From Squalus acanthias (Eukaryota): DNA of 64,000 nt. Every line of letters starts with the position of its first letter. Position 1 is the first letter of the stretch. Location: the NCBI GenBank assembly GCA_030390025.1, contig CM059432.1, forward strand, positions 98,954,001 to 99,018,000, written 5' to 3'. The notes beneath the pieces were generated by a model. It was not told where the DNA came from. It worked only from the letters and a program-made list of their open reading frames with translations, and made no database searches. Made by a program: the position numbers and the translations under genes. Positions 1,432 through 30,518 of the stretch are shown here, piece by piece.

Positions 1432-1959
1432 AAATCATGAGTGAAAGAAGTCTTTATGATTCAGTGCCAATTTGCTGGACAGTGGAAAAACATAGGAAGA
1501 TATTTTATAAGATAATTCAAAAAAGGTTTAAGAACATAAGAGCATAACAATTAGGAGCAGGAGTGGGCTCTACGGCCCCTTGAACCTGCTATGCCATTCA
1601 ATAAGATCATGGCTGACCTTTAACCTCAACTCAACTTTCCCACCTGATCTCCATTTTCCTTGATTCCCCTAGAGTCCAAGGGCTGGATTTTGCCAGTGTG
1701 GGCGGGCTGGGGCGTGTCAGGTGGCATTCGTGTCAGGACCCCGACTCCGATGTGAAGTGGGGAAAAAGTGCAATTTTGCCCTAATTGGGCACTTGATTTC
1801 CAGCGTGTGGGAACCCCTGGCCCAATGAGTCTTTTCATACAGAAAGTCGCCTCCGGTGACGTCATCAATGCTGCTGGATTTAAGGCCTGCAAGCAGCCTT
1901 GCCTCTTCTGGAGACTGCAAACTTTATGGTGATTATAGTAAGGAATTCATTGATCGACT

Positions 1960-3951
1960 ATGTCCACCAGCAGGCAAAAGTGTGCTCCACGCTTCGATGA
2001 GCCCTCCCTCCAAGCTCTGGTGGAGGGAGCAAGATTGAGTAAGGAGGAACTCTTCCCTTCCTCAGGGCGAAAAAAGCCACCTCAGCAGACTAAAGCTGTG
2101 TGGCTGTAAGTGGCCCAGGAGGTCAACTCCATATCGATGAGCCGCATAACCTGGCTGCAATGCAGGAAGAGGTTTCATGACCTTCTCCGCACAGGAAAAG
2201 TGAGTATGGCTTTCCCATCTCTCTCAATCTGATCCCCATCGTCTCTCCACACCAGCACTCTGCTTTGCTAACCTCTTCCTCCACATCCCACTTGACAGTA
2301 ACATCCCTGCACCCTTACCCATTGCCTCTCTCTCTATAGTCACATTCACTTAACTATTCTACCATGTAGCCCTCACACCCACTATCACTGCAATGCAACA
2401 ACAACAACAACTTACAACACACAGGGAGGGCCGTTTGTCTCCTTCTAAGCATCTATGCTATGCATTCTCTACACTCACTCCTTCATTCTCAGTCAAACTC
2501 CACTTGTGTCCCTCATTGCAGGAAAAGAGAGCCCTCAATAAGAGGGAAAGAGCCATAACAAAGGAGGGCCACCCTCAGTAGCCCAGCTCATCGCCTGGGA
2601 GGAGGCAGCCCTGGAAATTGCTGAGATCAAGGAGGATTCCCAAGTGGGGGACGGATAGACGGGCGCATCACAGCAAGCTGGTGACAGAATAGTTTGGCAT
2701 TTCTCTCATTGACATTGCATGAGTCACTGATAATGAATCTGATGCTCTAACAGATTGACTTATGATCATCTGCACTATTCAATGTGCATGTAACCTTAAC
2801 CTCACATCTCTAACTCTATCCTTTAATCCCACACAGGACCATCGAAAGCCCCCGTCCCCACTGTCCAGGAGGAAGAGCCTGATCTTCCAGACTCCTCAGA
2901 GGAAGCTGCAACCTCTGAGGGTGCAGCGTCAGCAGAATTCAGCGCACCCAGCACCAGCGCAGACACCCAAACCTTGGTGGGACCTTCGCGAGATAGAGTA
3001 GTGTTGGCACCTGGTGTATCACAGCTCACAAGTGAGCATCAGCAGATGGTGGAGACAGGAACAGCAGTGGACAATCGGAGGGCGCAGGACTCTGCCAGCT
3101 CGGCTCAGCTGCATGTCGACCCTGTGCCTCTGGGTCCACCCAGAAGGAGAGCGGTGCTGGAACTCCAGGAACAGGTGCAGGAGTCTCTGGCAGGTTTTGT
3201 CTCCAGGGTCACTGTGAGTGTGGAGCGAATGGAGGAGTCCATCGCGAACATGAGCAGAGCCTTAGTGGATGCATTGGCGCATGAACGCATCACCACGGAA
3301 AGGGTGGCAAACTCCGTGGAAAGGATGGCTAACTCCGTGGTAAGGCTGGTTACCGTAGAGGAGAGGATGGCTACAGTAGAGGAGAGGATTGGCTACGTCC
3401 ATGGAGGAGCTTAGTCACCAGGGTCTTGAAAACATGGTCATTGTTCAGAATAGAATGACATCTCTTGAAGAGCGATGGTCAGCTATTGAGCATAGAAACC
3501 AGACCTTCATGGAAGTCCTCTGGAGTAGGACTTCCAGTGAAGAAACGGGTCCTCATGGCCCTCCTGAGGTGCAGCAAGGTGCTGTCAAGCCACTTGCTAG
3601 CTCTGAAGTGGTACTGACCCATGAGAGGGATGTTGGTGGCAGACAACAAGAAAGTGGGGGGTCCTCTCCAAGCGCTCACATGACTATGCCACTGCAAAGC
3701 CCTCGGTCAGAGCCCCACCAGAGTCCTCACCCAACTGAAATGGGCGTCTCAGCCCCTGCACAGCCGCAGGAGCAGCAGACTGTTGCCGAGCCCTCACAGG
3801 TTCGCAACCCCAGAGGACGCCCGCCAAAGGCGTCGTACAGGAGCAGCAAAAACGTGAGCAAGGGGCCTCCACATCTGCTGAAGCCACAGGGGAAGTACCA
3901 TGTAGGAGCACGCGTAAGAGGAAGATAATGCACAAGGAGTCACAAGGGTAG
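1960..3951 (+). pseudogene. Harbinger Myb/SANT-like DNA-binding gene, 3 exons (1960-2199, 2522-2680, 2837-3951)
   Basis: Exon 1 MSTSRQKCAPRFDEPSLQALVE...AVWL*VAQEVN...TWLQCRKRFHDL; GT-AG introns; TAA at 2107 and frameshifts; heptad repeats in exon 3. Confidence 0.85.
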
Positions 3952-4196
3952 TCACTTGGGTGCTGTGATGTATTGTATTTGGACCAGCCATCCTTGTCAT
4001 GGTATCATAAACAGATTTGATGGCAAACTGTTGAAGTTGTGGCCTGTGTCATTTCGCAAATGGGACTTTACATTGAGGACTTAGGGCGACTTGCAATTGT
4101 CAGTATGGTGGTCAGAGTGATAGGAATCCGCAGGTTCTTGTCCATTGTCGATGCTCTGGTAAGAAGGTGCGAGGCAAAAGTGTTTGATTGTGCAGG

Positions 4197-4423
4197 CTAA
4201 GCAAATCTGGCCAACATGGGTGCGTCCCTTGCATCCTGGGCAGCAATGTGGTCGCGCGCTGGTGCCTTCTGGCCTGTGCAGTTTCAGGTGGATGAGCAGC
4301 AGCGTGGCGCTTCTGTTGTTGTTCCTGCTGTTGGTGCTGCTGTTGTTCATGGTTCTGCTGCTGCCACGGCTGGTCTTCATCCAAATCTGATGTCCAGGAG
4401 GAAAGGAAATAAATGGCTCCCAT
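4197..4423 (-). pseudogene. Harbinger transposase stub (N-terminus fused to C-terminus, DDE core missing)
   Basis: MGAIYFLSSWTSDLDEDQPWQQ matches the N-terminus at 61847; followed out of frame by DHIAAQDARDAPMLARFA*, matching the C-terminus near 63910-63965. Confidence 0.8.
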
Positions 4424-4589
4424 GCTTCTGCTATATACGTCTCAGAGGAAGCGTTCAGTCAAGGTGGGGAGAGGGGTTTCCCAGGAGGTCAAACTGGAGA
4501 TAGGTCTCCAAACTTCCACAACAATGAGTAGGCCTGCTAAAAGTTCCCCCAGATCTGAGACAACAAAGTTCTGCCACCTGCAAATGATG

Positions 4590-5035
4590 ATTTGCGGGGG
4601 AGGTCTTATGAGGAAAGATTGAGGGAGTTGGGGCTTTTCTCTTTAGAGCGGAGGAGGATGAGAGGCGACTTAATAGAGGTTTATAAGATGATGAGGGGGA
4701 TAGATAGAGTGGATGTTCAGAGACTATTTCCTCGGGTAGAGGCAGCTGTTACAAGGGGGCATAACTATAAGGTGCATGGGGGGAGATATAGAAGGGATGT
4801 CCGAGGTAGATTCTTTACTCAGAGAGTGGTTGGGGTGTGGAATGGACTACCTGCTGTGATAGTGGAGTCGGACACTTTAGGAACTTTCAAGCGGTTATTG
4901 GATAAGCACATGGAGCACACCAGAGTGATAGGGAGTGTGATAGCTTGATCTTGGTCTCGGACAATGCTCGGCACAACATCGAGGGCCGAAGGGCCTGTAC
5001 TGTGCTGTACTGTTCTATGTTTCTATGTTTCTATG
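4590..5035 (+). mobile_element. Young 5'-truncated CR1 LINE inside Harbinger copy 1
   Basis: ORF2 C-terminus SYEERLRELGLFSLERRR; (TTTCTATG)n tail; duplicated ATGATT (4587-4592, 5033-5038); absent from copy 2; nearly identical to the 3' end of 19406-22276. Confidence 0.95.
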
Positions 5036-6782
5036 ATTGCTGAAAACTCCTTTTTAATGGTGGAGCTGCAACTGTTACTAGCAATCCACTTGTGAGGCCG
5101 TCAGGATTACCTGGCGTGTTCCAGAGGAGGCGTGTAGGATAGGGGAAATGTCTAAAAATCAGAAAGGCCTCTCAAAATTGGATTATAGAGGCAATTAAAT
5201 GGTTGTTAAGGGCCTTAAGGGCCTATCCCACCTCTTGGAGGCGGGATGGAAGCGGGGTTTGAAACCCCGATTCTGGGAAAATTTCTCAGAGGCAGGATGG
5301 AGGCGGCATCGGGCCCGCACGCCATTTTTTGCGATTTTAACACCTCACACACCTCCAATCCCGCCTCCTTGGGCCTGGCAAAATCGAGCCCCAAATGTTT
5401 ATTTATCTCAGCCTTGAATGTACCCAACGATTCTGCATCCACAACCCTTTGAGGTAGAGAATTCCAAAGATTCAAAACCCTCTGAGTGAAAAGATTCCTC
5501 CTCATCTCAGTCTTAAATGGCCAACCCCTTATCCTGAGACTATGCCCCCTTGCTCTAGACTCTCCAGCCAGGGGAAACAACCTCTAAACTCTAGAAAGTA
5601 GAGGCCCAATCTACTCAATCTCTCCTCATAGGACAACCCTCTCATCCTAGGAATCAACCTAGTGAACGGTTGTTGCACCACCTCTAAGGCAAGTATATCC
5701 TTCCTCAGATAAGGAGACCAAAACTGTGCACAGTACTCCAGGTGTGGTCTCACGAAAGCCCTGTACAATTGTAGCAAGACTTCTTTACTCTTGTACTCCA
5801 CCTCCCTTGCAAAAAAGGCCGCTATACCATTTGCCTTCCTAATTGCTTGCTGTACCTCTATGCTAACTTTCTGTGTTTCCTGTACGAGGACACATCAATT
5901 TCCCTGAACAACAACATTTAATAGTTCCTCATCATTTAAAAAAGATTCTGTTTTTCTATTCTTCCTACCAAAGTGAATAACCTCACATTTCCCCACATTA
6001 TAATCCATCTGCCACCTTATTGCCAACTCACTTAACCTGTCTATATCCCTTTGTAGGCTCTTTGTGTCCTCCTCACAGCTTACTTTCTCACCTAGCCTGA
6101 CAACCGGAAAATGACCCGTTTATCCCTACACTCTGTTTTCTGTCCATTAACCAATCCTCTATCCATATTACCCCCAACCCCATGAGCCCTTATCTTGCGT
6201 AACAACCTTTTATGTGGCACCTTATCGAATGCCTTTTGGAAATCCAAATACACTACATCCACTGGTTCCGCTTTATCTACCCTGCTAGTTACACCCTCAA
6301 AAAACTCTACACTAAATTTGTTAAACACGATTTCCCTTTCATAAAACCATGTTGACTCTGCCTAATCATATTATGATTTTCTAAATGCCCTGTTACCACT
6401 TCCTTAATAATAGATTCCAGCATTTTCCCGACAGCTGATGTCAGGCTAACTGACCTGTAGTTCTCCGTTTTCTCTCTCCCTCCTTTCTTGAATAGTGGGG
6501 TTACATTTGCTACCTTCCAATCCATTGTGACCATTCTAGAATTTAGGGACTCTTGGAAGATCACAAGCAATGCATCCACTATCTCTGCAGCCACCTTTTT
6601 TACAACCCTAGGATGTAGGCCATCAGGTCCAGGGAATTTTGTGCTTTTAGTCCCATTAGTTTCTCAAGTCCTTTTTCACTACTGATCTTAATTACTTTAA
6701 GTTCCTCACTGTCATTAGCCCCTCGGTCCCCCACTATATTAGGTATGCTTTTTGTGTCTTCTACTATGAAGACAGATACTTT

Positions 6783-7476
6783 GGGCTGCATTTTGATACT
6801 GGGGCGGGTTGGGGTCGTGTCATCCACTTTTCGTGTTATCCACCCAACTACAATTGGATGTGGGAGATTGATGCGATTTTCACCTAATTGGGCAATTGAG
6901 TTCCAGCATGTGGGAACCCATGACCCAATTAGTGTTTTCAGTCTGAAAGTCGCCTCTGATGATGTTATCATTGCTGCTGCATTGAAGGTCTGCAAAGACT
7001 ACCTGGCCTTCGCTGTGAGAGGACCTGGATGCAAAATGAGCAGCAGCAGCCCTAAGTCTGCTCCCAGATATTTTTTGCACCACCACTCCCAGATATGTCT
7101 CCCATCCACCACCATCCCAGATATGTCATCCATCCATCCAGCCAGGCAGCCAGGCAGCCAGCCAGCTATTCAAATGTGCTACCACCAGGTTTCACATTCG
7201 TGGTTCAGAACAGGCGTGCTTCACGTAGAAAAAGGGTTAAAATCACAAAGGCCTTTCAAAATGGCATTATCGAGGCAATTTAGTGCTTGTTAAGGGCCTT
7301 AACAGCCAATCCCGCCTCTTAGAGGCGGGACAGAGTCGGGATCAGCAGACACGATTTAATGAAAATTGCGTGGAGGCGGGATGGAGGCAGGCTTGTGCCC
7401 GCCCGCCAGTTTTCGCAATTTTAACCCCCCCCCACGCCTCCAAACCCACCTCCACGGGTCAATGAAAATCCAGCCC
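6783..7476 (+). mobile_element. Short non-autonomous Harbinger related to the Myb-only family
   Basis: Ends GGGCTGCATTTTGA ... TGAAAATCCAGCCC; left part homologous to 1680-1900; keeps only the Myb gene start (MSSSSPKSAPRY); interrupts CR1; TSD not matching. Confidence 0.8.
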
Positions 7477-8346
7477 AAAATATTTGTTTAAAGTCTCTAC
7501 CATTTCAGATGCCATTTCAGATTTGCAAATCTCTATTTTAGAGTTTCTGAATTTGTTTTCATTCACCAATGATTTGAAATAATACACTACTGAAATTATC
7601 ATAGATTTCAATTTAAAAAGTGATTATCAGCTCTTTTGGTCAACATAGTATAAATAGTACAATTGTGCAATGACAAATTTACATTTTTTACACATAACAG
7701 ATTTTAATGAATAAATCTTCTCTTGCAACTTTAGAACTGACATCCAGAAAGAAGTGAAGTAAGGGTGAGCCACTTAACTTTCAAAGTTATATACCTGGAC
7801 AGAAAGTAGCAGATCTACTTTCCTATGCTCAAAAGTCCTAGTTAGGATGAAGAGAATTCCCTTAAAAGCTTGACTGCCGCCACTTGCAGTTCAACAAAAG
7901 ACAAGAGTGACTGCTCTCTCATTGGAACAAGGTATGTTCTTGAATTAAACTCTTCAGGATTATCTCTGCTGAAAAGTAAAGTCAGCACTGTCTTGGCCAG
8001 ATTTACTATTAATTGCTGAGTTTTACGAGATGACAGAAAGTCTGTGGATGGAAGAAAGTATTGGGCTAGAAATTGGACAAGGCTAAAAAACGAATGAGGG
8101 GATCCTTCCAAACTTCGTGCTGCCTGCTAATGTAAATAATAGTAGTGTGCAGCCCAGCGCTGAACGCACTGTTGAGTGGCTGCATGCCTCAGTAGAGGCC
8201 CAAGTTCAGATGAGCCTAGCATCACTTAAAGCCAGCTTTCACTACTTAAAGCCAGCCTTCACCTCTTAAAGGGGAGGTGTATTCTGGCTGGAGCAGGTGC
8301 AGGAAGTGGCTGAGGAAGATATTCTGAGCAGGAAGAACACTGACTA

Positions 8347-9210
8347 ATGGTGCAACAGGGAAGAGAGCATGCTCCAAGGTTCTCAGACTCAGCACTGGAG
8401 GCCTTGGTGCAGGAGGAGAACAGGAGGAGAGAGGTCTTCTATCCATAGGGGGCCAGGAGGCCCTCCAGACAAACTGTGAGAAAACAATGGGAGCAGATAG
8501 CCATCGCATTCAATGCCAGCAGTGTAGCCCCGAGCACCTGGATGCAGTGCTGCAAGAAGTTTAGTGACCTCACACGAGAGGTCGAGGTCAGTGAATTCAT
8601 CTTCAAATGCCATATCCTAACAACTGAACCACTAGGCTCAGACACTAGGCTCAATTCAGCACTCCCCCTTCACTCACATACCAACAATCTCTATCAATCA
8701 TGACTTATAACTCACCCTCAAACACTTAGCACTGCTACAAGCCTCACAACTACATCTCACAACTTGCACATACTGCCAGCTATTCAACCATGACAGGCAC
8801 ATCACCCAAACAGATTGTACCACATTCACTCACACACTTCCCTCTCTCGTGCAGGACAAGGTGGCTCATAACTGGAGGCAGCAGGGGCTACCCGCTGCAG
8901 GTGCGCCTGCATGACCTAACCCCCATGGAGGAGACAGTTCTGGAGATTATTGAAGCGGCCATCGCTGAGCCCATGGTTAGCGGCGGGGCTGAAACAATCG
9001 AAGATAATGGTATCCTCATACCTAATCCTCCTTTTCACATCCCACTTCCTCCTCATCCCATAATCTCTTCTGATTTACAAGCTGCAGATGGTGTAAGCAT
9101 GCACCTCTTGCTTTCCCCCCTTCCCTCACTGCAACCCTACCCTTGTGCCTTTCTCCTTTCAGATAGCTAAGAACTGCAACCTGGCCAGGCAGTGGTAGAG
9201 GAGCAAGAAT
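8347..9210 (+). pseudogene. Relic Myb/SANT gene of a different Harbinger family (exons 8347-8586, 8855-9009, from 9163)
   Basis: MVQQGREHAPRFSDSALEALVQE...WEQIAIAFN...TWMQCCKKFSDL with an internal stop; exon 1 is 240 nt as in the other Myb genes; exon 2 LTPMEETVLEII. Confidence 0.8.
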
Positions 9211-9304
9211 TCAGGATCAAGAAGTGGGTGAGTTTCTCACTCAAGTCACTACCCACCCACCCAAAATCCACCTGGAGTAAAATCTGTGCCAACATATCTA
9301 ATGG

Positions 9305-10263
9305 ATACACTCAGCAGGTCAGGCAGCACCTGTGCAGAGAGAAACAGAGGGCTGGATTTTGAATCTGAGGTCGGGTTGGTGTCGGGAATCACACATTCTG
9401 GCTTGTGAACCCGCCTCCATCGAGATGTGGCCAACCCACTGTATTTTCCCTTGATTGACCTTGTTGAGCCCGCCCAGTGGGCTCAGCAGGCCAATTAAGG
9501 GCCACCCGGCAACAGGTGACGTCACAGATTGACATTTCATCTGTCAAGAGCTTTTGACAGATGAAATATCAGCGTTTGACAGCTCTGTGAAGCTGTCAAA
9601 CACTCACAATATGATTTCTAACTTCAGTCCTTCCTCTCAGGCTGAGTTAGAAATCATTACACCACAGAAAACAGAAGGCTGCAGTTTTTGACAGGACCAC
9701 GGCTTTCCTGCTTACTGTGCCGGTGAGATTTCTAACTCCCGAGAACTGAAGGGCTGACACCTGCAGGAGGAAGTTAAGGTAAGTAAAACTTTTTCCAACA
9801 CTTAGCACTTATCTTACACACTTACCTCTGCACACATGCACCCATCACTCACCTGCCCACCGGACATATCGACCCCTCCAACCCCTGCAGACCCACGGCC
9901 CGCCCCGATTACTTGGCCTGGTAGCCACCTGTCGGGAAGCCCACACTTTTCTTTTTAAAATAGGGATTATCCAAAAAACTGCCTGTTAACTACCTGTTAA
10001 CAGGCAGTTAATTGTCACTAATCCCCTTCCCGCCTCGGGGAGTCGGGTCTCAGCACAGGTCGGGTACCTGCCGCCAGAGAAACTGGCATGGAGGCGGAAT
10101 GGGGTCGGGATGGGGTCGGGACCCCCGAATCTGCAACTTTAACCCCCCCCCCGCCTCCAAACCCGACTCCACGGGTCATTGAAAATCCAGCCCCGAGTTA
10201 ACGTTTCAGGTCGATGTTCCTTTTTATTTCAGATTTCCAGCATTCGCAGTATTTTGCTTTTGT
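9305..10263. mobile_element. Penelope terminal remnant (9305-9348 and 10194-10263) split by a MITE
   Basis: ACTCAGCAGGTCAGGCAGCA...AGAGTTAACGTTTCAGGTCGATG matches the Penelope 3' region at 27280-27450. Confidence 0.65.
9349..10193. mobile_element. Harbinger MITE family A (about 830 bp)
   Basis: TIRs GGGCTGGATTTT ... AAAATCCAGCCC; TSD AGA/CGA; twin internal TGACAG palindromes; homologous to 12167, 24235 and 62120. Confidence 0.85.
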
Positions 10264-10294
10264 AATTAATAGATATTTGTGAGTGATTCACAAT

Positions 10295-11037
10295 GGGCCG
10301 AAAATTGATCCCGGGACGCGAGAGTACGCAGTGCGTACTCTCGCGTATTCCCACTCCAATTGCCGGTTTTCTGCATGCCCTGCGCATGCGCTGAAAACCG
10401 GCAATTGCTCTTCTGAAAAGGGGGCGGGTCCTCGGTGCATCGCGTGCGCGCTACAGGCTGCGCGCACGCTGTGCACTTCATGCTTTGGACGCGCAGGTAA
10501 GTAGGGAAGATTTTGGAAATGTAAAAAGGAGGAGTAAGACCCGCTTTTAAGAAGGTAAGTAGTGAATTAAGTATTTTTTTGAATTTTTTTTTACAGGTAT
10601 ATCTTTTTTAGAGACTTTAAAGACAGGTAAGTTTATTTTTATAACTTTTTAAAAGATTTTAAATTTTTTCAAAAATTTAATTTTTTATTTAAAATGGTTA
10701 ATTTAATTAACTATACTTATTTTATTAATGTGATGGTTTTTTTTTTAAATTTAATTGAGGTTTAGCTGTTATTTTGGGGGGGTGTAAGATTCATAGATTT
10801 CACAGGGTGCTGTGAAACTTATGAATGGAAGATGGTGTGCTGCCATTGGCTCTAACTGAGTCACGTGATCCCACAGCTCGCACAAATTCACTACGCCGCT
10901 GGGATACGCAAGCACTGCCCAGCTGATCTCTAGAACATGAAGTTCGTGCGAGCTGGATCTGAAAAAGCACAAGCGAGGTGAGAGATCGCGGGAAAGCCTT
11001 ACCCCCGCGGGAACAGAGCGAGATCAATTTCTGGGCC
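10295..11037. mobile_element. Harbinger-type MITE family B (about 740 bp)
   Basis: TIRs GGGCCGAAAATTGATC ... GATCAATTTCTGGGCC; TSD AAT; GC-rich arms and AT-rich core; related to 52706 and 56987. Confidence 0.8.
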
Positions 11038-11176
11038 AATCTGTTTTTATTTCTTTCCTCATTTTTTTCCCCGTGTTTTTGAAAAGACTGGGGGTAATAT
11101 TTACTTTTGGTGTGGGCAGAGAATTGATCCGTTATGCACTCCACCCAATTATCCTTATAGATGATGCAGGATGATG

Positions 11177-11920
11177 CTAAGGGAAATAGGTCCTTTCTAT
11201 CCACTTTATCTATGCCCCTCATAATTTTATACACCTCAATAAGGTTTCCCCTCAGCCTCCTCCGTTCCAAGGAAAACAGACCCAGCCCATCCAATCTTTC
11301 CTCATAGCTAAGATTCTCTACTCCCGGCAACATCCTTGTAAATCTCCTCTGTACCCTCTCTAGAGCAATCACATCTTTCCTGTAATGTGGTGACCAGAAC
11401 TGCACGCAGTACTCTAGCTGAGGCCTAACTAGTGTTTTATACAGTTGAAGCATAACCCCCCTGCTCTTGTATTCTATGCCACGGCTAATAAAGGCAAGCA
11501 TTCCGTTTGCCTTCTTAACCACCTTATCTACCTGGCCTGCTACCTTCAGGGATCTGTGGACATGCACTCCAAGGTCCCTTTGTTCCTCAGTGTCCTACAA
11601 TTTAATGTGTAGTCCCTTTCCTTGTTAGCCCTCCCCAAATGCATTACCTCACACTTCTCCGGATTGAATTCCATTTGCCACTGTTCTACCCACCTGACCA
11701 ATTTATTGATATCTTCCTGCAGTCTACAGCTTCCTTCTTCAGTATCAACCACACAGCCGATTTTAGTATCATCTGCAAACTTCTTAATCATACCCCCTAT
11801 ATTCAAGTCTAGATCATTGATATATACCACAAAAAGCAAGGGACCGAGTACTGAGCCCTGCAGAACCCCACTGGAAACAGCCTTCCAGTCACAAAAACAC
11901 CCATCAACCATTACCTTAAT
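11177..11920 (-). mobile_element. CR1 LINE RT fragment
   Basis: [33 protein letters not shown]. Confidence 0.92.
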
Positions 11921-12166
11921 GGACAGGAAATCATGACTAACAAGTGCACAGCAGAGCATCCCTCACTTGAGTGTCAGGAGGTTGTTCAAATGTGGGGGAG
12001 GATTACAGCTGACGACCACACATGCTAATTTTCCAGCAGGAGTCATTAACTAGGAACAGTAGTGGAACCCTGGATTACTGCAGCAAAATGGATTTTTGCC
12101 TCTGTTGAATTTTTTTTACTTATTTCGTGTACTGCCAGAACCAGCATTTAAGCAGTAATTACCCAA

Positions 12167-12978
12167 GGTCACAATTTTGCCTGCGCTGGAGAGGCAGGTT
12201 TGGAGGCGGGACTGCCGGGAAAATGGTAGAATCTGGGGGCGGATACCCATCCCACCTCCGTGCCATCTTCCCAGGAGGCGGGTTCCCGACCCGCACCAGG
12301 TCCGGTCTCCAGGAGATGGGAAGGGGATTACAGCCACTTAACTGCCTGTTAACAGGTAGTTAACAGGCAGTTAAGAGGATTATCCCCATTTTTCCAGCAG
12401 AAGTGCGGGCTTCCTGATGTCAGGAAACCCCACCAGGGTCAGCGAGGCGAGCGGGGTCCAAAAGTGCGCTGTGGAGGTGAGTGATGGGTGCAAGTGTGGA
12501 GAGGTCAGTATGTGAGATGAGTGAAAAGTGTTAGAAAAAGTTTCCTTACCCTGTTTCTTCCTGCAGGCTTCAATTGTTGGGGATCCGGAGGCTCCGGCAT
12601 CTCAATGGCAGAGATGACAGAATGGCTGCTGCATTCTCCGATGCAACAGCCATCTGCTTTCTGCTCAGAAAATAGGTTTGGTGAGTCTTGAGTACAAGAA
12701 CTCACCAAACAACAGAGAATGTCAGTGTTTGACAGCTTCTCAAAGCTGTCAAACGATGACAATTCATCTGTCAAAAATTTTTGACAGATGAAACGTCATA
12801 CGCTGATGTTCTCTGTCACCGGCATTCCCTTAATTAGCCTGCTAAGCCCGCTGGGCGGGCTTAACAAGGTCAATCAAGGGAAAATAGCGTGGGTTGGCCA
12901 CAAGTCGATGGAGGCGGGACTAAAACCCGACAAGCAGTAGTCCTGTCTCCAACGCGCCCCCATTGGCAAAATCACCCC
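12167..12978. mobile_element. Harbinger MITE family A (inverted relative to 9349)
   Basis: Ends GGTCACAATTTTGCC ... GGCAAAATCACCCC; TSD CAA; same internal palindromes. Confidence 0.85.
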
Positions 12979-13179
12979 CAAGGCATCTAACAGTAGAAAG
13001 CTATTAGCTTAGAATAGATGAGGGGCTAAAAATTGGATTTCCTCCAAAAATGGGCATGGGGATCGTGATGCACGATTGCCCCATGTCTGTTGAAAGGAAT
13101 GCAGGCAGCACGCAAACTTTTGCCTGCTAATTATAGCGATTGTAGCTTTCAACCCAGCACTGTCACTCAACTTCTTTGC

Positions 13180-13541
13180 TTCAGGGTCCTTCCAAGGATC
13201 AGCAGCAGACATCAGCGGCATCTCCCGGTCGGCCACACACACTTGCATCATGCAGGTTACCGATGCCCTCTTTGCAAAGTCGTACAATTACATCCACTTC
13301 TCCACGGATGAAGCAAGTGTAACCGCGCGTGCGGTTGGCTTTGCAAATATGGCAGGCTTCCCAAGGGTGCAGGGCGTCCTAGACTGCACACATGTGGCCA
13401 TTAGGGCACCCCATCACAACCCAGCTGTATTTGTCAACCGCAAGGGTTTCCACTCCCTTAACGTCCAGCTGGTGTGTAACCACAGGAAGAACATTATGCA
13501 TGTTTGCGCCAAGTTCCCTAGCAGCTGCCATGATTCGTTCA
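13180..13541 (+). pseudogene. Harbinger DDE transposase fragment
   Basis: [20 protein letters not shown]...[14 protein letters not shown]...CHDSFI; closely similar to 63060-63430. Confidence 0.9.
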
Positions 13542-14004
13542 TTGGGGTGATGAATCTTTACTGTGTTATCCAGGAATCTGAGAGGTGCAAATCTTTAAAA
13601 CTATACTAGAAGCCACAGTGAAGCCCACGGTAAATTTACCCCTTGACATCTTATCTGGGACATATTTATTCCAGAGCTTTTTATTAAACAAAGTTGTTTT
13701 AATTTTCCTCAATCCAATTTCCAGAAAATATGAAATTCTGTTTAGAGTTAGTGGAACCTCTCAGGAATATCTTTAGATTAAATTAACTAACTGATTGAAT
13801 TAAGCTCACTTTAGAAATACTTTGGGGATCTAAATTTCCCTATTACAAATAATGAAGCTAAAACTGCTCACACCACATCAGAATGTAACCCTTTCAGATC
13901 TTGATACGGATATCAAGTATATGACCTGAAGTGTCACAAGGTAAAGCTTACCGCAGTTTCTCAAAGACAAAAAAATAATTCTGCATCACTGATAGTTCAG
14001 CAAG

Positions 14005-14345
14005 TTTATCCAATGGCTGAGCCATTTAGACCGCATCAGTACCATGTTCGATTCTCATTCAGCACTAAGTTAGCTGGTGGCAGCAGTGGTGGTGCTATTA
14101 TTTGCCTCTGTATCCTTGGGTTAGGGGTTAGGGGTTAGGGAGCGGAAAAGTGACCAGGGTTCCTGCTCCTGACCAATGCCAGCAACCTCTGCTGACGTGC
14201 ACACGAGGCTCAACTGCAGCTGTCATGCCCTGCACGGTCAGATTCACAGACACGACTGTCAAGGCTCACACGTGATATGGTCATTTGGGGGAAATACTAG
14301 AGGATGACTATACCCCAGCAAGTAGTCAACACCTTCAGGATATGA
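14005..14345 (+). mobile_element. Probable old tRNA-derived SINE
   Basis: B-box-like GTTCGATTC near 14046 after a degenerate A-box; assignment from recalled resemblance only; contains (GGGGTTA)n. Confidence 0.3.
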
Positions 14346-17300
14346 AGGAAGGGGAGAGGCTGATGAGAAGAGAAAGGATAAACTCATACATGCTGTTGGC
14401 AAGCTGCTCTGAGGTATTTGAATAGATTGAACTATTCTATGTCTCTACGCCTCATGTCCATTAACCTCGGATAAAACAAAAAAGGCAAAAGCAATAATTT
14501 TCAAATGCTGTCTTTGTCACATATTCCCTTGGGCTTGGCTAAAGTTGGGTGTCAGGTTGCATTTGACAACATTTGATATGTGCTTCAGCCAATTTCCATT
14601 TATCAGTCACTCACGTCAGTTCTTTTCATATTATTCGCACTGCTTTTATTACACCAAACTCTCCCAGAAACCCATCCAGCAAAGGTTAACTGCATTATCT
14701 TCAGCCAGCTTCCCCATGTGTTTCACCAAAAGAATAAATGACATGCAATATTAGTGACGTGGGGATTTAAGAAGAAGATGGTGCTGCAAGATTTCTCAAA
14801 AATCATTTTTCAGAGCAAAAATTCAGTTTAACACATCCCGTGAGATGCTTCTTTTTTATGAATGGTGCGCTCATGAAAGTAAGAAACTAGTTCTGGGGAA
14901 ATTAAACACGTTCTATTTCAAGAACCTTCAAGCATCAAGCACTCCCAGGTCAGATACCAACATGCTCTTGTAAACAATGACAGAAGCTTATCAACCTTAT
15001 AAATGAATCTGGGCAGAGACTCAACTGGTAGGATGGAATTTCAGAGTCTTCAGAGTTAAAATGCAGCACTTTATTTTCCAGAATTCCCAGTCCACTTTTG
15101 ATATAGTTTATGTCAGAATGTGATTTGGTGCCTTTTCGGCAGATCAAATGAAAATGTGATGTTTGTTTTTGATTTTCTAAGATGAGCTCAATAACATAGC
15201 TTCAAGTGCAGATTTGGATAGGTGTAGGGAACATATTTGTGGTGGGGACATAAAATTGCAGCAGGTGTCATAATAGGATGGCAAAAATTCAGAAAAGCTT
15301 TGGAGAGCTTCCTTGAGCAATGCCATGAGAGATTCATATCAATAAAACTGCTGCCTCTGACATGTGTTCTTCACACATGAGAAATGTCCAAAACGCACAA
15401 ATTACTAATTGAGCTCAAATTCCTTATAAATCAATCAAAACACTTTTATTTCACATTCTCGGAGTACATCTTCTTTCCAAATCCTTTCAGTGGTCATGCG
15501 CATCCCATCCCAAATCTCCCAACCTGGCACCACCTTCCTATCCTTTAGCAACGGTGTTGCTTCCTCCTCACCATGGCCAAAGGCAAAGAATATCTGTTAG
15601 TATGTGTGTAACGTTATGCTCTTACACGTTCAATGTTTAGAAAAGGAGGTTAGATATTTACGGCCTGGTATCTTGGGGCGGATCATGGAGTGGGGTGGGG
15701 GGGGAGGAAGGTGGGGTAACTAGAATATAGCAGGTGGGTACCCACACCATTTTTTGATGCCCATCTCATCTCAGTAAGTGGACCCACTGTTTAAAATTTA
15801 TACCAGGCAATTTTTGAATTTGACATAGGCTAATATGGCTTTTAAAATTTACAATGGCCCCACTTTTATCGAGATCAGGCATTGGTAAATGAGTACGACT
15901 CTTTATGCAGGTGTACAAATGAGGCAGTGCTGGTGGGAATCTTGATGGATGACATTTTCAACCAGCCCTGACTCTTTTAGCGACGTCCACATGGAAGGGG
16001 ACAGGTGCAAATTACTTCCAGCAGAAGTTTCAGTGAACAGAAGAAAGTACAGAGACCTGGAGTAACTGGGTCCTGCTCCAAATTCTGTCCTGCCCACCCA
16101 GATAATGGCACCAGTGCATGCCCAGGGTCCAAACATTTTAGCCCTAAGTTATCTACTAAACTGAGAATGAAAGTTCATGTGGGGGCCCTGTTGTCACTAT
16201 ATGGGTCAATATCTGACTTTATACTTCTAACGGAGAGTCTCATCCTCCGAGCACATCTATTAGAGGTTTGTGAGTGTTCTGTGCATGATTCTCTGACCAT
16301 TTAAGTTAATAGTCATTTGCAGCGTGCAACTAAAATTCCAATATATGTTCTGGCATATGGGGGTCCCTGCTTGGAGCCAGAAAATTATTCCTACCATTTA
16401 TCCAATGGGAAAACGTAACCAAATAATACCTAAATGAATATAGAGAAGGGTTTGTGTTTTGTCGGAATTGGTTAGTAGTGGGAGGAAGCATGTTGTGTCA
16501 CGTGTTGCTTTAGTTTGCCTTAAGCCACCATTAGTGACCAGATTTTGACCTGGCATGAAGAAAGTCCAATTTAAATTCATACAAATGGGTGTTATCCATT
16601 GGATGCATGTCCTCAACTATGTTGTGTTCCCATTGGATCTGATCTGGTCATTTATTAAATGAACAGACCAAACCAAATAATGCATGAGTGACAAAATTGC
16701 AACCACATAACCATTGTGTTAACATGTTTTCTGCTTGCTAATTAAATGTTAAATTGTGACAAAAATGTTTAATAGTTTATTACGTTCTTAATGGCAAAAT
16801 GTCTGTATATTTTATGTTCTATAAGTAAGGCTGAAATAGCATCAAATATGCCAAACAAAATGATTTAATTTTTCCTTCTGTGGAAGCGGAGTTATTCTGG
16901 AAATGGCATTCCTCATGGAAAAATCACAGTGACTACTTGCATCCCTTTTGATACAAGGGGCTCGATTTTGCCAGGCCCGAGGAGGCGGGATTGGAGGCGT
17001 GTGAGGTGGTAAAATCACAAAAAATGGCAGGCGGGCCTGATCCTGCCTCCATCCCGCCTCCGAGCAATTTTCCCAAATGCGTGTTTTCTGACCCCATTTC
17101 CATCCCACCTCCAAAAGGCCAGATAGGCCCTTAAGGCCCTTAACAACCAGTTAAGTGCCTCTATAATTCCATTTTGAGAAACTTTCTGATTTTACCACTT
17201 TTCCCACGTACTGCACGTCTCCTCTGGAACGCGCCAGTGAATCCTGGCGGCCTCACAAGTGGACTGCTTACTAACAGCTGCAGCTCCAACATTAAAAAGG

Positions 17301-19405
17301 AGTTTTCAGCAATCATCATTTGCAGGTGGCAGAACTTTATTGTCTCAGTTCTGGGGGAACTTTTAGCAGGCATACCCATTGTTGTGGAAGTTTGGAGCCT
17401 GACACCCATCTCCAGTGTGACCTTCTGGGAAACCCCTATCGGCACCTTGACTGAGCGCTTCCTCAACTGAGGCATATATCAGAAGCATGGAAACCATTTA
17501 TTTCCTTTCCTCCTGGACATCAGATTCGGACGAAGACCAGCCGTGGCAGCAGTAGAACCATGAACAACAGCAGCACCAACAGCAGCAGCAACAACAGGAG
17601 CGCCAAGCTGCTGCTCATCCACCTGAAGCTGCACAGGCCAGAAGGCGCCAGCGCGTGACCACATTGCTGCCCGGGATGCAAGGGACACACTCATCTTGGC
17701 CAGATTTGCTTAGCCTGCACAATCAAACACTTTTGCCTCGCACCTTCTTATCAGAACATCGACAATGGCCAAGAATCTGCAATTCCTATCACTCTGACCA
17801 CCACACTGACAATTGCAAGTTGCCCGAAGCCCTCAATGTGGAAGTCCCATTTGCGAAATGACACAGGCCACAACTGCAACAGTTTTCCATCAGAAATTTT
17901 TACGACAATAAGCAACTGATGGCTTTTCAAAATTAAAGACAACATTACACCCAAGTGACTACCCTTGTGACTACTTGTGCATTATCTTCCTCTTACGCGT
18001 GCTCCTACGTGGTGCTTCCCCTGTGGCTTCAGCAGATGTGGAGGCCCCTTGCTCACTTTCTTGCTGCTCCTGTCTCGACAACTTTGGCGGCCGTGCCCTT
18101 GGGTTGCGAACCTGTGAGGGCTTGGCAACAGTCTGCTGCTTCTGCGGCTGTGCAGGGGTTGAGACGCCGATCTCAGTTGGGTGGGGACTCTGGTGGGGCT
18201 CTGACCGAGGGCTCTGCAGTGGCATGGTCGTGTGAGCGCCTGGAGAGGAACCCCTACTTCCTTGTTGTCTGCCACCAACATCCCTCTCATGGGTCAGCCC
18301 CACTTCAGAGCTAGCAATTGGCTGGACAGCACCTTGCTGCACTGCAGGGGGGCCACGAGGACGTGTTTCTGCACTGGAAGTCCTACTCCAGAGGACTTGC
18401 ATGAAGGTCTGGTTTGTTTACTCAACAGCTGACCATCGCTCCTCAAGAGATGTCATTCTATTCTGAACAATTACCATGTTTTCCATACCCTGGCGACTAA
18501 GCTCCTCCATGGATGTAGCCATTCTCTCCTCTACCATAGCCATCCTCTCCTCTACGGTAGCCAGCCTTACCAAGGAGGTAGCCATCCTTTCCAAGGAGGT
18601 TGCCATCCTTTCCGCGGTGATGCGTTCTTGCACCAATGCCTCCACAAAGGCTCGGCTCATGTTAGCGATGGACTCCTCCATTCGCTCCACACTCGCAGCG
18701 ACCCTGGAGACAAAACCTGCCAGACACTCCTGCACCTGTTCCTGCAGTTCCATCACCGCTTTCCTTCTGGATGGACCCGGAGGCACAGGGTCGACATGCA
18801 GCTGAGCCGAGCTGGGAGCGTCCTCTCCACTGCGACGAGGACTCTCCACTGCTGTCCCTGTCTCCACCATCTGCTGATGCTCACTTGTGAGCTGTGATAC
18901 ACCAGGTGACAAATCTACTCTATGTCGCAAAGGTCCCACCGAGGTGTGAGTGTCTGCGCTGGTGCTGGGTGCACTTAATTCTGCTGACGGAGCGCCCTCA
19001 GAGGTTGCAGCTTCCTCTGAGGAGTCTGGAAGCTCAGGCTCTTCCTCCTGGACAGTGGGGACGGGGGCTCTCGATGGTCCTGTGGGGGAGTAAAGGAAAG
19101 AGTCAGAGATGTGAGGTAAAGGTTGCATGCACATTGAATTATGCAGATGATCATAACTCAATCTGTTAGAGCATCAGAATCATTATCAGTCACTCATGCA
19201 ATGTCAATGAGAGAGATGCCAAACTATTCTGTCACCAGCTTGCTGTGATGCGCCCGCCTGTCCGTCCCCCACTTGGGAATCCTCCTCGATCCCGACAATT
19301 TTCAGGGCCGCCTCCTGTGGTGAGCTGGGCTACTGAGGGTGGCCCTCCTCCTGTCCTTGCTCTTTCCCTCTTATTGTGGGCTCTCTCTTCCTGCAATGAG
19401 GGACA

Positions 19406-22276
19406 CATAGAAACATAGAAACATAGAACAGTACAGCACAGTACAGGCCCTTCGGCCCTCGATGTTGTGCCGAGCATTGTCCGAGACCAAGATCAAGCTA
19501 TCACACGCCCTATCACTCTGGTGTGCTCCATGTGCTTATCCAATAACCGCTTGAAAGTTCCTAAAGTGTCCGACTCCACTATCACAGCAGGCAGTCCATT
19601 CCACACCCCAACCACTCTCTGAGTAAAGAATCTACCTCGGACATCCCTTCTATATCTCCCCCCATGCACCTTATAGTTATGCCCCCTTGTAACAGCTGCC
19701 TCTACCCGAGGAAATAGTCTCTGAACATCCACTCTATCTATCCCCCTCATCATCTTATAAACCTCTATTAAGTCGCCTCTCATCCTCCTCCGCTCTAAAG
19801 AGAAAAGCCCCAACTCCCTCAATCTTTCCTCATAAGACCTCCCCCCCAAACCAGGCAGCATCCTGGTAAATCTCCTTTGCACTCTTTCCGATGCTTCCAC
19901 GTCCTTCCTATAGTGAGGTGACCAGAACTGCACACAATATTCCAAATGTGGTCTCACCAAGGTCCTGTACAGTTGCAGCATAACCTCACGGTTCTTAAAC
20001 TCAAACCCTCTGTTAATAAACGCCAACACACCATAGGCCTTCTTTACTGCTCTATCCACTTGAGTGGCAACCTTCAGAGATCTGTGGATATGAACCCCCA
20101 GATCCCTCTGCTCCTCCACGTTCCTCAGAACCCTGCCGTTGACCCTGTAATCCTTATTCAAATTTGCCCTACCAAAATGAATCACCTCGCACTTATCAGG
20201 GTTAAATTCCATCTGCCATTTTTCGGCCCAGCTCTGCATCCTATCAATGTCTCTTTGCAGCCTACAACAGCCCTCCACCTCATCCACTGCTCCACCAATC
20301 TTGGTGTCATCAGCAAATTTACTGATCCACCCTTCAGTCCCCTCCTCCAAGTCATTGATAAAAATCACAAACAGCAGAGGACCCAGCACCGACCCCTGTG
20401 GCACACCGCTGGTAACTGGTCTCCAGTCCGAAAATGTTCCATCCACCACCACCCTCTGCCTTCTATGAGATAGCCAGTTACTTATCCAATCGGCCAAATT
20501 TCCCTCTATCCCACAACTCCTTACTTTCTTCATGAGCCGACCATGGGGAACCTTATCAAACGCCTTACTAAAATCCATGTATACGACATCAACTGCTCTA
20601 CCTTCATCTACACACTTAGTTACCTCCTCAAAGAATTCAATCAAATTTGTTAGGCAAGACTTACCCTTCACGAATCCGTGTTGACTTTCCCTGATTAAGT
20701 TGCCCCTTTCCAAATGGTCATAAATCCTATCCCTCAGGACCTTTTCCATTATCTTACCAACCACTGAAGTAAGACTAACCGGCCTATAATTACCAGGGTC
20801 ATTCCTATTTCCTTTTTTGAAGAGAGGAACAACATTCGCCACTCTCCAGTCCTCTGGCACCATTCCCGTGGACAGTGAGGACCCAAAGATCAAAGCCAGA
20901 GGCTCTGCAATCTCCTCCCTTGCCTCCCAAAGAATCCTAGGATATATCCCATCTGGCCCAGGGGACTTATCGACCCTCAGGTTCTTCAAAATTGCTAAAA
21001 CATCTTCCCTCAGAATATCTACCACCTCCAGCCTATCCACCTTTATCACACTCTCATCCTCAAGAACATGGCCCCTCTCCTCGGTGAACACTGACGAAAA
21101 GTATTCATTCATCACCTCTCCTATCTCTTCTGACTCCATGCACAAGTTCCCACTACTGTCCTTGACCGGCCCTACCCTCACCCTGGTCATTCTTTTATTT
21201 CTCACATAAGAGTAAAAGGCCTTGGGGTTTTTCTTGATCCAACCCGCCAAGGACTTCTCATGCCCCCTCCTAGCTCTCCTAAGCTCTTTTTTTAGCTCAT
21301 TCCTTGCTACCTTGTACCCCTCAATCGACCCAACTGAACCTTGTTTTCTCATCCTTACATACGCTTCCTTTTTCCTCTTGACTAGACATTCAACCTCTTT
21401 TGTGAACCATGGTTCTCTCACTCGGCCATCTCCTCCCTGCCTGACAGGGACATACCTATCAAGGACACGCAGTAATTGCTCCAAGAAAAAGCTCCACTTT
21501 TCGTTTGTGCCTTTCCCTGATAGTTTCTGTTCCCATCTTGTACTCCCTAATTCTTGCCTAATCGCATAATAATTACCCCTCCCCCAATTATAAACCCTGC
21601 CCTGCCGTATGGCCCTATCCCTCTCCATTGCAATAGTGAAAGTTACCGAATTGTGGTCACTATCTCCAAAGTGCTCTCCCACATACAAATCAAACACTTG
21701 GCCCGGTTCATTACCCAGTACCAAATCCAACGTGGCCCCACCTCTTGTCGGCCTATCCACATATTGTGTCAGGAAACCCTCCTGCACACACTGTGCAAAA
21801 ACTATCCCATCCGAACTGTTTGACCTATAAAGGTTCCAATCAATATTTGGAAATTTGAAGTCACCCATGACAACTACTCTGTGACCTCCACACCTATTCA
21901 TAATCTGCTTTGCAATTTCTTCCTCCACATCTTTATTACTATTTGGAGGCCTGTAGAAAACTCCTAACAACATGACCGCTCCTTTCCTATTTCTAACTTC
22001 AGCCCATATTACCTCAGACGGCAGATCCCCCTCGAACTGCCTTTCTGCCGCTGTTAAACTATCCTTGATTAACAATGCTACTCCTCCACCTTTCTTACCA
22101 ACTTCCCTACTCTTACTGAAACATCTATACCCCGGAACTTCCAACAACCATTCCTGTCCCTGTTCTAACCATGTCTCCGTAATGGCCACCACATCGTAGT
22201 CCCAAGTACCAATCCACGCTCCAAGTTCTCCTACCTTATTCCGGATGCTCCTTGCATTGAAGTAGACACACTTCAT
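19406..22276 (-). mobile_element. Young CR1 LINE, 5'-truncated at the ORF2 start
   Basis: (TTTCTATG)n tail; 3-bp duplication CAT (19406-19408, 22274-22276); the empty site is visible in copy 1 near 2503. Confidence 0.95.
19493..22276 (-). CDS. CR1 ORF2, APE endonuclease + reverse transcriptase, uninterrupted (927 aa from the junction ATG)
   Basis: YFNARS, ITETWL, GDF, SDH endonuclease motifs; [23 protein letters not shown] motifs; no stops. The first 23 aa of the 950-aa track ORF are Harbinger intron sequence. Confidence 0.95.
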   Translation of the reverse strand: MKCVYFNARSIRNKVGELGAWIGTWDYDVVAITETWLEQGQEWLLEVPGYRCFSKSREVGKKGGGVALLIKDSLTAAERQFEGDLPSEVIWAEVRNRKGAVMLLGVFYRPPNSNKDVEEEIAKQIMNRCGGHRVVVMGDFKFPNIDWNLYRSNSSDGIVFAQCVQEGFLTQYVDRPTRGGATLDLVLGNEPGQVFDLYVGEHFGDSDHNSVTFTIAMERDRAIRQGRVYNWGRGNYYAIRQELGSTRWEQKLSGKGTNEKWSFFLEQLLRVLDRYVPVRQGGDGRVREPWFTKEVECLVKRKKEAYVRMRKQGSVGSIEGYKVARNELKKELRRARRGHEKSLAGWIKKNPKAFYSYVRNKRMTRVRVGPVKDSSGNLCMESEEIGEVMNEYFSSVFTEERGHVLEDESVIKVDRLEVVDILREDVLAILKNLRVDKSPGPDGIYPRILWEAREEIAEPLALIFGSSLSTGMVPEDWRVANVVPLFKKGNRNDPGNYRPVSLTSVVGKIMEKVLRDRIYDHLERGNLIRESQHGFVKGKSCLTNLIEFFEEVTKCVDEGRAVDVVYMDFSKAFDKVPHGRLMKKVRSCGIEGNLADWISNWLSHRRQRVVVDGTFSDWRPVTSGVPQGSVLGPLLFVIFINDLEEGTEGWISKFADDTKIGGAVDEVEGCCRLQRDIDRMQSWAEKWQMEFNPDKCEVIHFGRANLNKDYRVNGRVLRNVEEQRDLGVHIHRSLKVATQVDRAVKKAYGVLAFINRGFEFKNREVMLQLYRTLVRPHLEYCVQFWSPHYRKDVEASERVQRRFTRMLPGLGGRSYEERLRELGLFSLERRRMRGDLIEVYKMMRGIDRVDVQRLFPRVEAAVTRGHNYKVHGGRYRRDVRGRFFTQRVVGVWNGLPAVIVESDTLGTFKRLLDKHMEHTRVIGRVIA

Positions 22277-23712
22277 GTGGAGTTTGAGTGAGAATGAAGG
22301 AGTGAGTGTAGAGAATCCATAGCATAGATGCTTAGAAGGAGACAAAAGGGCCCACCCTGTGTGTTGTAAGTTGTTGTCATTGCGTCACAGTGATAGGGAG
22401 TGTGAGGGCTGCATGGTCAAATAGTTAAGTGAATGTGACCATAGAGAGAGAGGGAATGGGTGAGGGTGCAGGGATGTCAGTGTCAAGTGGGATGTGGAGG
22501 AAGAGGTTGGCAAAGCAGAGTGCTGGTGAGGAGAGGCGATGAGGATGAGATTGAGAATGATGAGAAAGTCATACTCACTTTTCCTGTGCGGAGAAGGTCA
22601 TGAAACCTCTTCCTGCACTGCAGCCAGGTTCTGCGGCACATAGAGATGGCATTGACCTCCTGGGCCACTTGCAGCCACACAGCTTTAGTCTGTTGTGGTG
22701 GCTTTTTTCTTCCTGAGGAAGGGAAGAGCACCTCCTTATTAGATCTTGCTCCCTGCACCAGAGCTTGGAGGGAGGGCTCATCAAAGCGAGGTGCACACTT
22801 TTGCTTGCTGGTGGAGATGGTCGGTAAATGAAGTCCTTTATATAATGTCCAAAGCATTTCCAGTCTCCAGAAGAATCAAGGCTGCTTGCAGGCCTTAAAT
22901 CCAACAGCATTGATGACGTAATCGGAGGCGACTTTCTGTATGAAAAGACTCATTGGGCCAGTGGTTCCCACACGCAGGAAATCAATTGTCCAATTAGGGG
23001 AAAATCCCACTTTTTCAACACATCACTTAGGAGTCGGGGTCCTGACACGATTTCCACCTGACACGCCCCAGCCCGCCCACACTGACAAAATCCAGCCCAA
23101 GGCTATGTTCTGTCAGCTGTGTTTCAGATCAGAATATCATCATTTTATTTTTCTTTCCAGTTTTCTGATTTTTTATTTTTAATTTGTGCAGAAGAATTGT
23201 GTCATTTTCCGAATTGTATTTTAGGATTACAATTATTGTTTTCTTCAAAGTGACCTATGTGGTAGGGCATCTTTTCCATACGTAATTTATTAATGGTCTG
23301 CTATATAGATTGGTGGTGTTAGAAATGTTTTCACCATTTTGTAAGGCGTTCCAATTTCTGAAAGTTGATAAGATTTGTGTTACTTTGGGGAACTAAATTC
23401 ATTGTAATCTCATCATTGGAGGAATAATTGGATATTTGGGTTAAATAATAGAGGAAGGCTGACTGTGGTCCTGAGCTGAATAGTGGAAGAGCAATAGAAG
23501 CCGAGCATCATGTTTGGGTAGCAGTGAAATGAATTGCTAGATGTATGAAGTGTCTTGGAAGGATAGTTCACAAGTCTAACAAATGTATGTTTGAAACGGT
23601 CTTGTGTTACCTTTGGCAATTTATCGTATATCTCGCAAAAATGAAAAATTAAATTAACTAGTTTATCCTGAAGAAAAATAACTGATGGGCAAGGCAATTT
23701 ACAATTTTTGTT

Positions 23713-24234: not shown

Positions 24235-24636
24235 CAGAAACTGCAGAGAGTCCCTCAGCTGACCGGCACAGAAAGCAGAATGGCTGCGGAGCTGTCAAAA
24301 GCTGCAGTCTCTGCTTTCTGTGCTGGATTGATTTCTAACTGAGTCTAAGTACAGGGACTCACGTTAGAAATCATATTGTCAGTGTTTGACAGCTTCACAG
24401 AGCTGCCAAACGCTGAAATTTCATCTGTCAATAGCTCTTGACAGATGAAATTTCAATGGCTGACGTCACCTGTATCCAAGAGACCCTTGATTGGCCTGCT
24501 AAACCCGTTGGGCGGGCTTAACAAGGTCAATCAAGGGAAAATACAGTGGGTTGGCCACAAGTCGATGGAGGCGGGACTACAACCCAAAAAGTGGGAGTCC
24601 CGCCTCCATCACGCCCCCATTGACAAAATCCAGCCC
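24235..24636. mobile_element. Partial Harbinger MITE family A
   Basis: Twin TGACAG palindromes and right TIR CAAAATCCAGCCC; the other end is missing. Confidence 0.8.
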
Positions 24637-30479: not shown

Positions 30480-30493
30480 TGGTGACCCCGACG
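30480..30493 (+). promoter_or_regulatory. Primer-binding site complementary to the tRNA-Trp 3' end
   Basis: TGGTGACCCCGACG one base after the 5' LTR. Confidence 0.85.
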
Positions 30494-30518
30494 CTCAGAA
30501 CGTATTCCGAGCACTGCA

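Follow-up and report, generated by a model that had tools for sequence, protein, structure and literature searches.

A Harbinger family in Squalus acanthias that lost its transposase core, kept its Myb gene and probably moved with a borrowed transposase

Can a cut-and-paste transposon that has lost its nuclease still spread, and does the accessory gene that it keeps then remain of use to it? The question is raised by a 64,000-nucleotide stretch of Squalus acanthias DNA (the window), in which a first-pass annotation, made from the letters alone, had described two insertions of a Harbinger element without its transposase core but with its spliced Myb gene. Our overall reading, to which we assign a probability of roughly 80%, is that this Myb-only derivative moved with a borrowed transposase and then decayed. 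The two copies, with their ends and the LINE pieces that they later received, are placed as follows.

1680..5391, + strand: copy 1, a Myb-only Harbinger derivative; core of 3267 nt and a CR1 fragment; target-site duplication (TSD) CAA
16958..23098, - strand: copy 2, the same Myb-only Harbinger derivative; core of 3275 nt and a CR1 insertion; TSD AAG
1680..1696, + strand: Myb-side terminal inverted repeat (TIR) of copy 1
5375..5391, - strand: transposase-side TIR of copy 1
4593..5032, + strand: 3′ fragment of a CR1-type LINE in copy 1, a later insertion with a 6-nt duplication on its flanks
19408..22276, - strand: CR1-type LINE in copy 2, a later insertion in Myb intron 1, with the endonuclease and RT frame open

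Inspection of the flanks bore out both insertions with their TSDs and ends intact, CAA at 1677-1679 and 5392-5394 for copy 1 and AAG at 16955-16957 and 23099-23101 for copy 2. The TIR of copy 1 is 17 nt long and 94% complementary, and copy 2 has the same ends. The features of PIF/Harbinger elements are all present: short TIRs, 3-nt TSDs, a Myb/SANT second gene and descent from a DDE_Tnp_4 transposase; neither TSD matches the TWA consensus reported for the nematode family. With the CR1 insertions removed, the cores (3267 vs 3275 nt) are 90.0% identical. The CR1 in copy 2 holds 963 codons from stop to stop, encoding endonuclease and RT, and the LINE pieces of the two copies are 99% identical to each other; one LINE family struck both. 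Since the LINE pieces are this similar, the CR1 insertions are young and their host elements older. The copies lie only 11.6 kb apart, as might be expected if a local segmental duplication, or independent deletions after insertion, had produced them in place of the transposition of an already deleted master. However, when the window is compared with itself the copies stand in opposite orientation and similarity stops at the TIRs, their TSDs differ, and the deletion junction recurs in other sequencing runs (described below), which makes this origin hardly credible.

The transposase side of each copy is reduced to a remnant, which can be compared with a more complete relative at the far end of the window.

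4197..4423, - strand: transposase remnant of copy 1; N-terminal 56 codons (4423-4256) with the last 18 joined out of frame; junction 4256/4255
17487..17713, + strand: transposase remnant of copy 2; junction 17654/17655
61294..63973, + strand: cousin Harbinger; decayed DDE_Tnp_4 transposase at 61847-63973, interrupted by a MITE (62120-62958)

The claim that both copies share one deletion junction holds in coordinates and in sequence: both read CAGCGC/GYGACCAC, at 4256/4255 on the minus strand and at 17654/17655 on the plus strand. A fusion of about 55 transposase codons to about 18 had also been proposed, and here 56 N-terminal codons are indeed joined to the last 18, but out of frame; as the join shifts the frame, no fusion protein is made. 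An in-frame mini-transposase was rejected on the same ground. With its core deleted and the fusion out of frame, neither element contains an intact DDE transposase. The loss, put at roughly 1 kb of DDE core by the first-pass annotation, comes to 1,066 nt relative to the transposase at 61847-63973 when the 839-nt MITE of the latter is set aside. The remnants match both ends of this gene at 73-75% DNA identity, and its core matches PF13359 (DDE_Tnp_4) with E=4.6e-20. This element served only as a ruler for the size of the deletion; as a parent it was rejected, because an identity of 63-65% over the transposase-side end marks it as a member of a cousin family. No full-length partner of the family was found in the window, where the transposases are this cousin and more distant fragments. 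The cousin reads CAGCGC and CAGCAC at the two breakpoints, a microhomology which suggests that the deletion may have been microhomology-guided.

The window holds several other Harbinger-type remains. Short elements without recognised genes lie at 6783-7476, 9349-10193, 12174-12979, 24259-24636 and 62120-62958; the first shares 75% identity with the family at both ends, and the last is the MITE (839 nt) inside the cousin's transposase, with a GTA duplication. An isolated transposase core fragment at 13168-13542 (+), without nearby ends, is 91% identical to the cousin's core. A decayed spliced Myb/SANT fragment of another Harbinger family is found at 8347-9230 (+), cut off near the element that starts at 9349. 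At 29336-30235 (+) and 32809-33258 (-) a decayed transposase and the 3′ part of a Myb gene converge, remains of another Harbinger that give the two-gene layout in this genome. A GC-rich LTR element at 30377-32531 (+) is inserted in this Harbinger. Its two LTRs are short and 96% identical, and its frame of 617 codons (DUF7041, RT) ends at the second of them. A GC-rich insert with several inverted repeats lies at 59245-59921, within a CR1 fragment.

In both copies the second gene of the element is present throughout its length.

1960..2199, + strand: Myb exon 1, copy 1; encodes the Myb/SANT domain in 80 codons; codon 50 is a copy-specific TAA
2522..2680, + strand: Myb exon 2, copy 1; one base missing near 2560; codon 126 is TAG
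2837..3939, + strand: Myb exon 3, copy 1; an extra base near 3389, one base missing near 3836 and no terminal stop (lost at 3937)
22579..22818, - strand: Myb exon 1, copy 2; frame open; ATC where the start codon should be
19236..19390, - strand: Myb exon 2, copy 2; 5-nt deletion
17971..19079, - strand: Myb exon 3, copy 2; codon 354 is a premature TAA; ends in TAG

The retained three-exon gene of the first-pass annotation is thus found in both copies, with GT..AG introns and 502 codons plus stop, and the joint frame ends in TAG. Exon 1 of copy 2 matches PF13873 (E=3e-11; 43.5 bits vs a cut-off of 21.7). In copy 1 the reading frame is broken by two premature stops and three 1-nt frameshifts, and the terminal stop is gone; the damage in copy 2 consists of the ATC start, the 5-nt deletion, a single premature stop and, in intron 1, a CR1 of 2.87 kb. 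No lesion is common to the two, as had been said, though each copy carries more of them than were listed, and both are now locally dead. Support for the exon model comes from outside the window. P0009 (XP_067827223.1), an annotated elasmobranch protein of 465 aa, aligns with exon 1 over its residues 1-80 and with exon 3 over residues 134 to 460, with part of exon 2 also matched, and because it is collinear with the exons it supports the model independently. Shared-word searches of proteins found no candidate for exon 3 of copy 2 among longer proteins (0/4620), none for exon 1 among longer proteins (0/24) and one for exon 3 among proteins of near length (1/2315, 40% identical); a protein of this exact family was not found in these searches. 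Metagenome contigs gave 0 matches to the junction pattern and one weak locus for the exon 1 protein (L001, 38% identity).

A HMMER search with exon 1 of copy 2 returned 55 proteins, and all ten of those looked up are from sharks and rays. Proteins P0004 and P0058-P0065 are Myb proteins of this type that form one 90% cluster over four ray species, a possible domesticated gene. Since related Myb proteins are annotated in several elasmobranchs, with that one cluster common to four ray species, it could be proposed that the Myb gene studied here was likewise retained for a host function. Against this, both copies are broken and belong to an abundant family, and the mobile elements that carry them are intact, TSDs included; the single-copy, intact gene without TIRs or TSDs that would mark domestication is not what the window contains. 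We therefore judge retention for the host to be very unlikely.

To see how far the deleted form extends beyond the window, public sequencing runs are informative. Part of copy 1 is contained in 20 of the 24 listed runs (8 studies). Contigs of four runs were aligned to 1640-4587 at 80% likeness, yielding 23,243 (X4), 72,132 (X1), 795 (X16) and 1,159 (X18) aligned contigs with 30/30 bins covered in each; summed contig depths do not measure copy number and are not read that way here. Among the 32 pieces listed, contigs differing from copy 1 by 10-15% bridge the junction in three of the four runs. The X16 contig spans 4184-4376 with no gap and 25 other letters in 193, the X1 contig spans 4137-4427 with 8 gap letters and the X4 contig 4156-4291 with 10, at gap positions not given for the latter two; the three runs carry two organism codes. 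The junction is therefore not confined to the two copies in the window, and the claim that the deleted form itself transposed is upheld by the different TSDs together with this recurrence in three of four runs. Copies 1 and 2 are decayed members of an abundant family that lost the transposase core and kept the Myb gene. No loose end falls at the junction among 24 of 3068 listed, a sample too thin to call full-length partners rare.

The same contigs bear on the state of the Myb gene in the element from which the copies descend. At 2107, the site of the exon 1 stop of copy 1, the family letter is C in 99.5-100% of depth in 4/4 runs, and at 3937 it is T, giving the terminal stop, in 98.9-100% of depth. 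The frameshift at 2560 is reversed in 97-100% of depth in X16 and X18, 15% in X4 and 36% in X1; that at 3389 in 86% of depth in X4 and 11-45% in the other runs; and that at 3837 in 55% in X16 (136.5/247 depth) and 2% or less elsewhere, at most about 1% in X4 and X1, while 36 X4 contigs end loosely at 3837 in copy 2's letters. This evidence draws on 40 of 976 variant rows listed, the start codon not among them, and copy 2 bears the listed variant letter in 28 of the 40. Because the lesions are unshared, and the letters of the family give a sense codon at 2107 and the terminal stop codon at 3937, the Myb frame of the master was very probably open, as the first-pass annotation had supposed and as the collinearity of P0009 also indicates. 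Variants at 1971 and 1976 in exon 1 occur in contigs and in neither copy. Three X1 contigs skip 2485-3396, which removes Myb exon 2 and half of exon 3, and these may represent a Myb-less subfamily. None of the listed runs is on record as RNA; in two guessed to be so, introns are covered like exons and no intron joint occurs among 15 of 144 joints listed, which bears neither way.

We propose the following history. The ancestor would have been a two-gene, tail-to-tail PIF/Harbinger transposon that lost ~1.07 kb of its transposase gene, probably by the microhomology-guided deletion considered above. The deleted master, so far as two copies and the contig letters show, retained its TIRs at both ends, the GGAGGYGGG repeats next to them and a Myb/SANT gene whose three exons were open. 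Harbinger mobilisation requires both proteins, which may come from different elements (PMC2836001, in the text available), with the Myb-like protein attaching to the element's ends and acting as the partner of the transposase (PMC9179366, likewise in part). Given this two-protein requirement, the transposase of full-length relatives elsewhere in the genome would have cut and pasted the deleted element, with Myb protein from intact copies presumably binding the ends and recruiting the borrowed enzyme. High copy number, seen qualitatively in the contigs, followed, after which copies decayed singly and received the younger CR1 insertions. A candidate Myb binding site is GGAGGYGGG. Of its 22 occurrences in the window, 21 lie no more than 300 nt from an end of a Harbinger-like element, a zone that makes up 7% of the window; the motif was picked by eye from these ends, and its enrichment is not an independent test. 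The first-pass annotation had called the element semi-autonomous, supplying its own specificity adaptor and borrowing nuclease. With its core deleted the element must borrow transposase, so the nuclease has to come in trans, but that it needs or profits from its own Myb is only partly supported. Indeed, since ORF-less elements with the same TIR type are present in the window, its own Myb in cis was not needed for movement.

Did the Myb gene nevertheless stay under selection after the deletion? Because the deletion is common to both copies, the differences between them postdate it, barring recombination, and the dN/dS check suggested earlier was run on this pair. In exon 1 the counting method gave dN 0.057, dS 0.275 and omega 0.21 (bootstrap 0.08-0.49), with Fisher P=0.001 and a neutral simulation P=0.0005, and GY94 gave omega 0.20 (LRT P=0.0006). 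Exons 2 and 3 (412 codons), on the other hand, are neutral by GY94 (omega 0.92, P=0.71), and the whole gene lies between (GY94 omega 0.69, P=0.07; counting method 0.60, Fisher P=0.007). The N-terminal transposase remnant has pN = pS = 0.065; GY94 on the remnants (73 codons) returned omega 5.3, kappa 15.7 and P=0.016, an unstable fit on few changes that we read only as absence of purifying selection. The first-pass annotation would have given up its idea for a family Myb frame already disrupted or evolving neutrally, or for a junction limited to these two copies. Neither clearly applies: the frame was very probably open and exon 1 is constrained (omega ~0.20), but exons 2 and 3 are neutral.

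This pattern is the one expected if the DNA-binding domain stayed under selection, and is a hint from one pair of copies, 79 codons and 22 differences. We hypothesize a division of labour, in which junction-bearing masters kept a functional Myb because it raised their own mobilisation, either because few loci are active per germ cell or because Myb acts near its own locus, so that the domain was purified long after the nuclease was lost. A low omega in exon 1 between junction-sharing copies whose transposase remnants are unconstrained argues for this, as do MADF-bearing derivatives that expanded in Caenorhabditis inopinata, one of which transposed recently (PMC13668399, available text), and a Harbinger-derived MADF protein reported, in the part of PMC11893794 at hand, to act in cis on its own locus. 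Set against it are the small size of the comparison, the neutrality of the remainder of the Myb protein and the spread of Myb-less derivatives. We place selection on the Myb domain after the deletion slightly short of an even chance.

An explanation that we hold to be about equally probable is that Myb was kept only because the deletion missed it, with full-length elements making all the proteins. The exon 1 omega would then reflect a conversion or template-switch tract, or the same deletion arising twice at one microhomology. A tract converted from a diverged full-length subfamily could give the same exon 1 picture: dS in exon 1 (~0.27) is about twice the non-coding divergence (0.08-0.15), its pN of 0.055 is lower than the divergence of all non-coding sequence (P=0.009) but not significantly lower than that of the introns (P=0.09), and the sites at which the copies differ are unevenly spread over the element (overdispersion P=0.04). 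The exon 1 variants at 1971 and 1976, in neither copy, show that subfamilies exist; the CAGCGC/CAGCAC microhomology at the relative's breakpoints would allow a recurrent deletion. Neutral exons 2 and 3, ORF-less elements with the same TIR and the further-deleted X1 form without 2485-3396 also fit a gene carried along, and in theory DNA-transposon proteins are shared goods on which selection is expected to be weak (PMC13558583, as available to us). However, the constraint coincides exactly with the DNA-binding exon and its reading frame, the other forward frames showing no excess of silent changes; the introns on either side of it do not have raised divergence (0.10, 0.08); and contigs up to 15% diverged still span the junction. 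The fuller proposal, that a nuclease-less lineage persisted over subfamilies and host lineages with its Myb domain under purifying selection and a private adaptor advantage, we hold to be slightly less probable than either.

If the exon 1 signal holds, an abundant one-junction family would be a natural experiment on an accessory protein selected without its nuclease, bearing on public versus private replication (discussed in the available part of PMC13558583) and on the origin of domesticated Myb/SANT regulators. A private adaptor advantage, if true, would show at the level of selection that division of labour in a DNA transposon can be stable, contrary to the shared-goods expectation. The hint of continued selection on the DNA-binding part of the helper is the only new twist here, for the concept of a Myb-only Harbinger is already published (PMC8437027, PMC13668399), and what our family contributes in structure is one more instance, from a vertebrate and probably an elasmobranch, of a class already described. 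Searches of open-licence papers gave no report of a shark Myb-only Harbinger family or of selection in Myb-only derivatives, and the accessible portion of PMC2213677 has nothing on Myb-only forms. As to lineage, one survey found no Harbinger in the single cartilaginous species that it examined, the elephant shark, and called for other cartilaginous fish (PMC9179366, in the portion available).

The closest known system is Harbinger-1M_cIno, an active MADF-only family of C. inopinata described by Sato et al. 2026, with 19 MADF-only elements (14 intact), one intact DDE gene in the genome and a proposed supply of transposase in trans (PMC13668399, from its available text). Like the shark elements, it has TIRs, 3-nt TSDs, a spliced Myb-type (MADF) gene and no DDE frame. 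There, unlike here, a new insertion was caught, the DDE source was identified and RNA data were presented; the words 'purifying' and 'synonymous' are absent from that paper. The shark family, in turn, belongs to a vertebrate and seems to be much more abundant and also older, its copies differing by 10%, and both of its copies in the window are dead. Among vertebrates, the solo-ORF variants of Harbinger-Snek in Laticauda (Galbraith et al. 2021) are similar by description, being multi-copy, Myb-like-only variants ascribed to large deletions, with 452 intact DNA-binding-only copies in L. colubrina, but full-length and transposase-only forms of that element are known (PMC8437027, in part); the available text of the paper has no junction or selection analysis, and 'purifying' has 0 matches in it. 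Autonomous fish elements of the Harbinger3_DR type likewise pair a transposase with a Myb-like, end-binding partner (PMC9179366, same portion), whereas the shark derivative has no transposase core. Finally, the mPing and Tourist MITEs are also internal-deletion derivatives, moved in trans by ORF1 and transposase (PMC2836001, as above), but they encode nothing, while the shark derivative retains the whole Myb gene.
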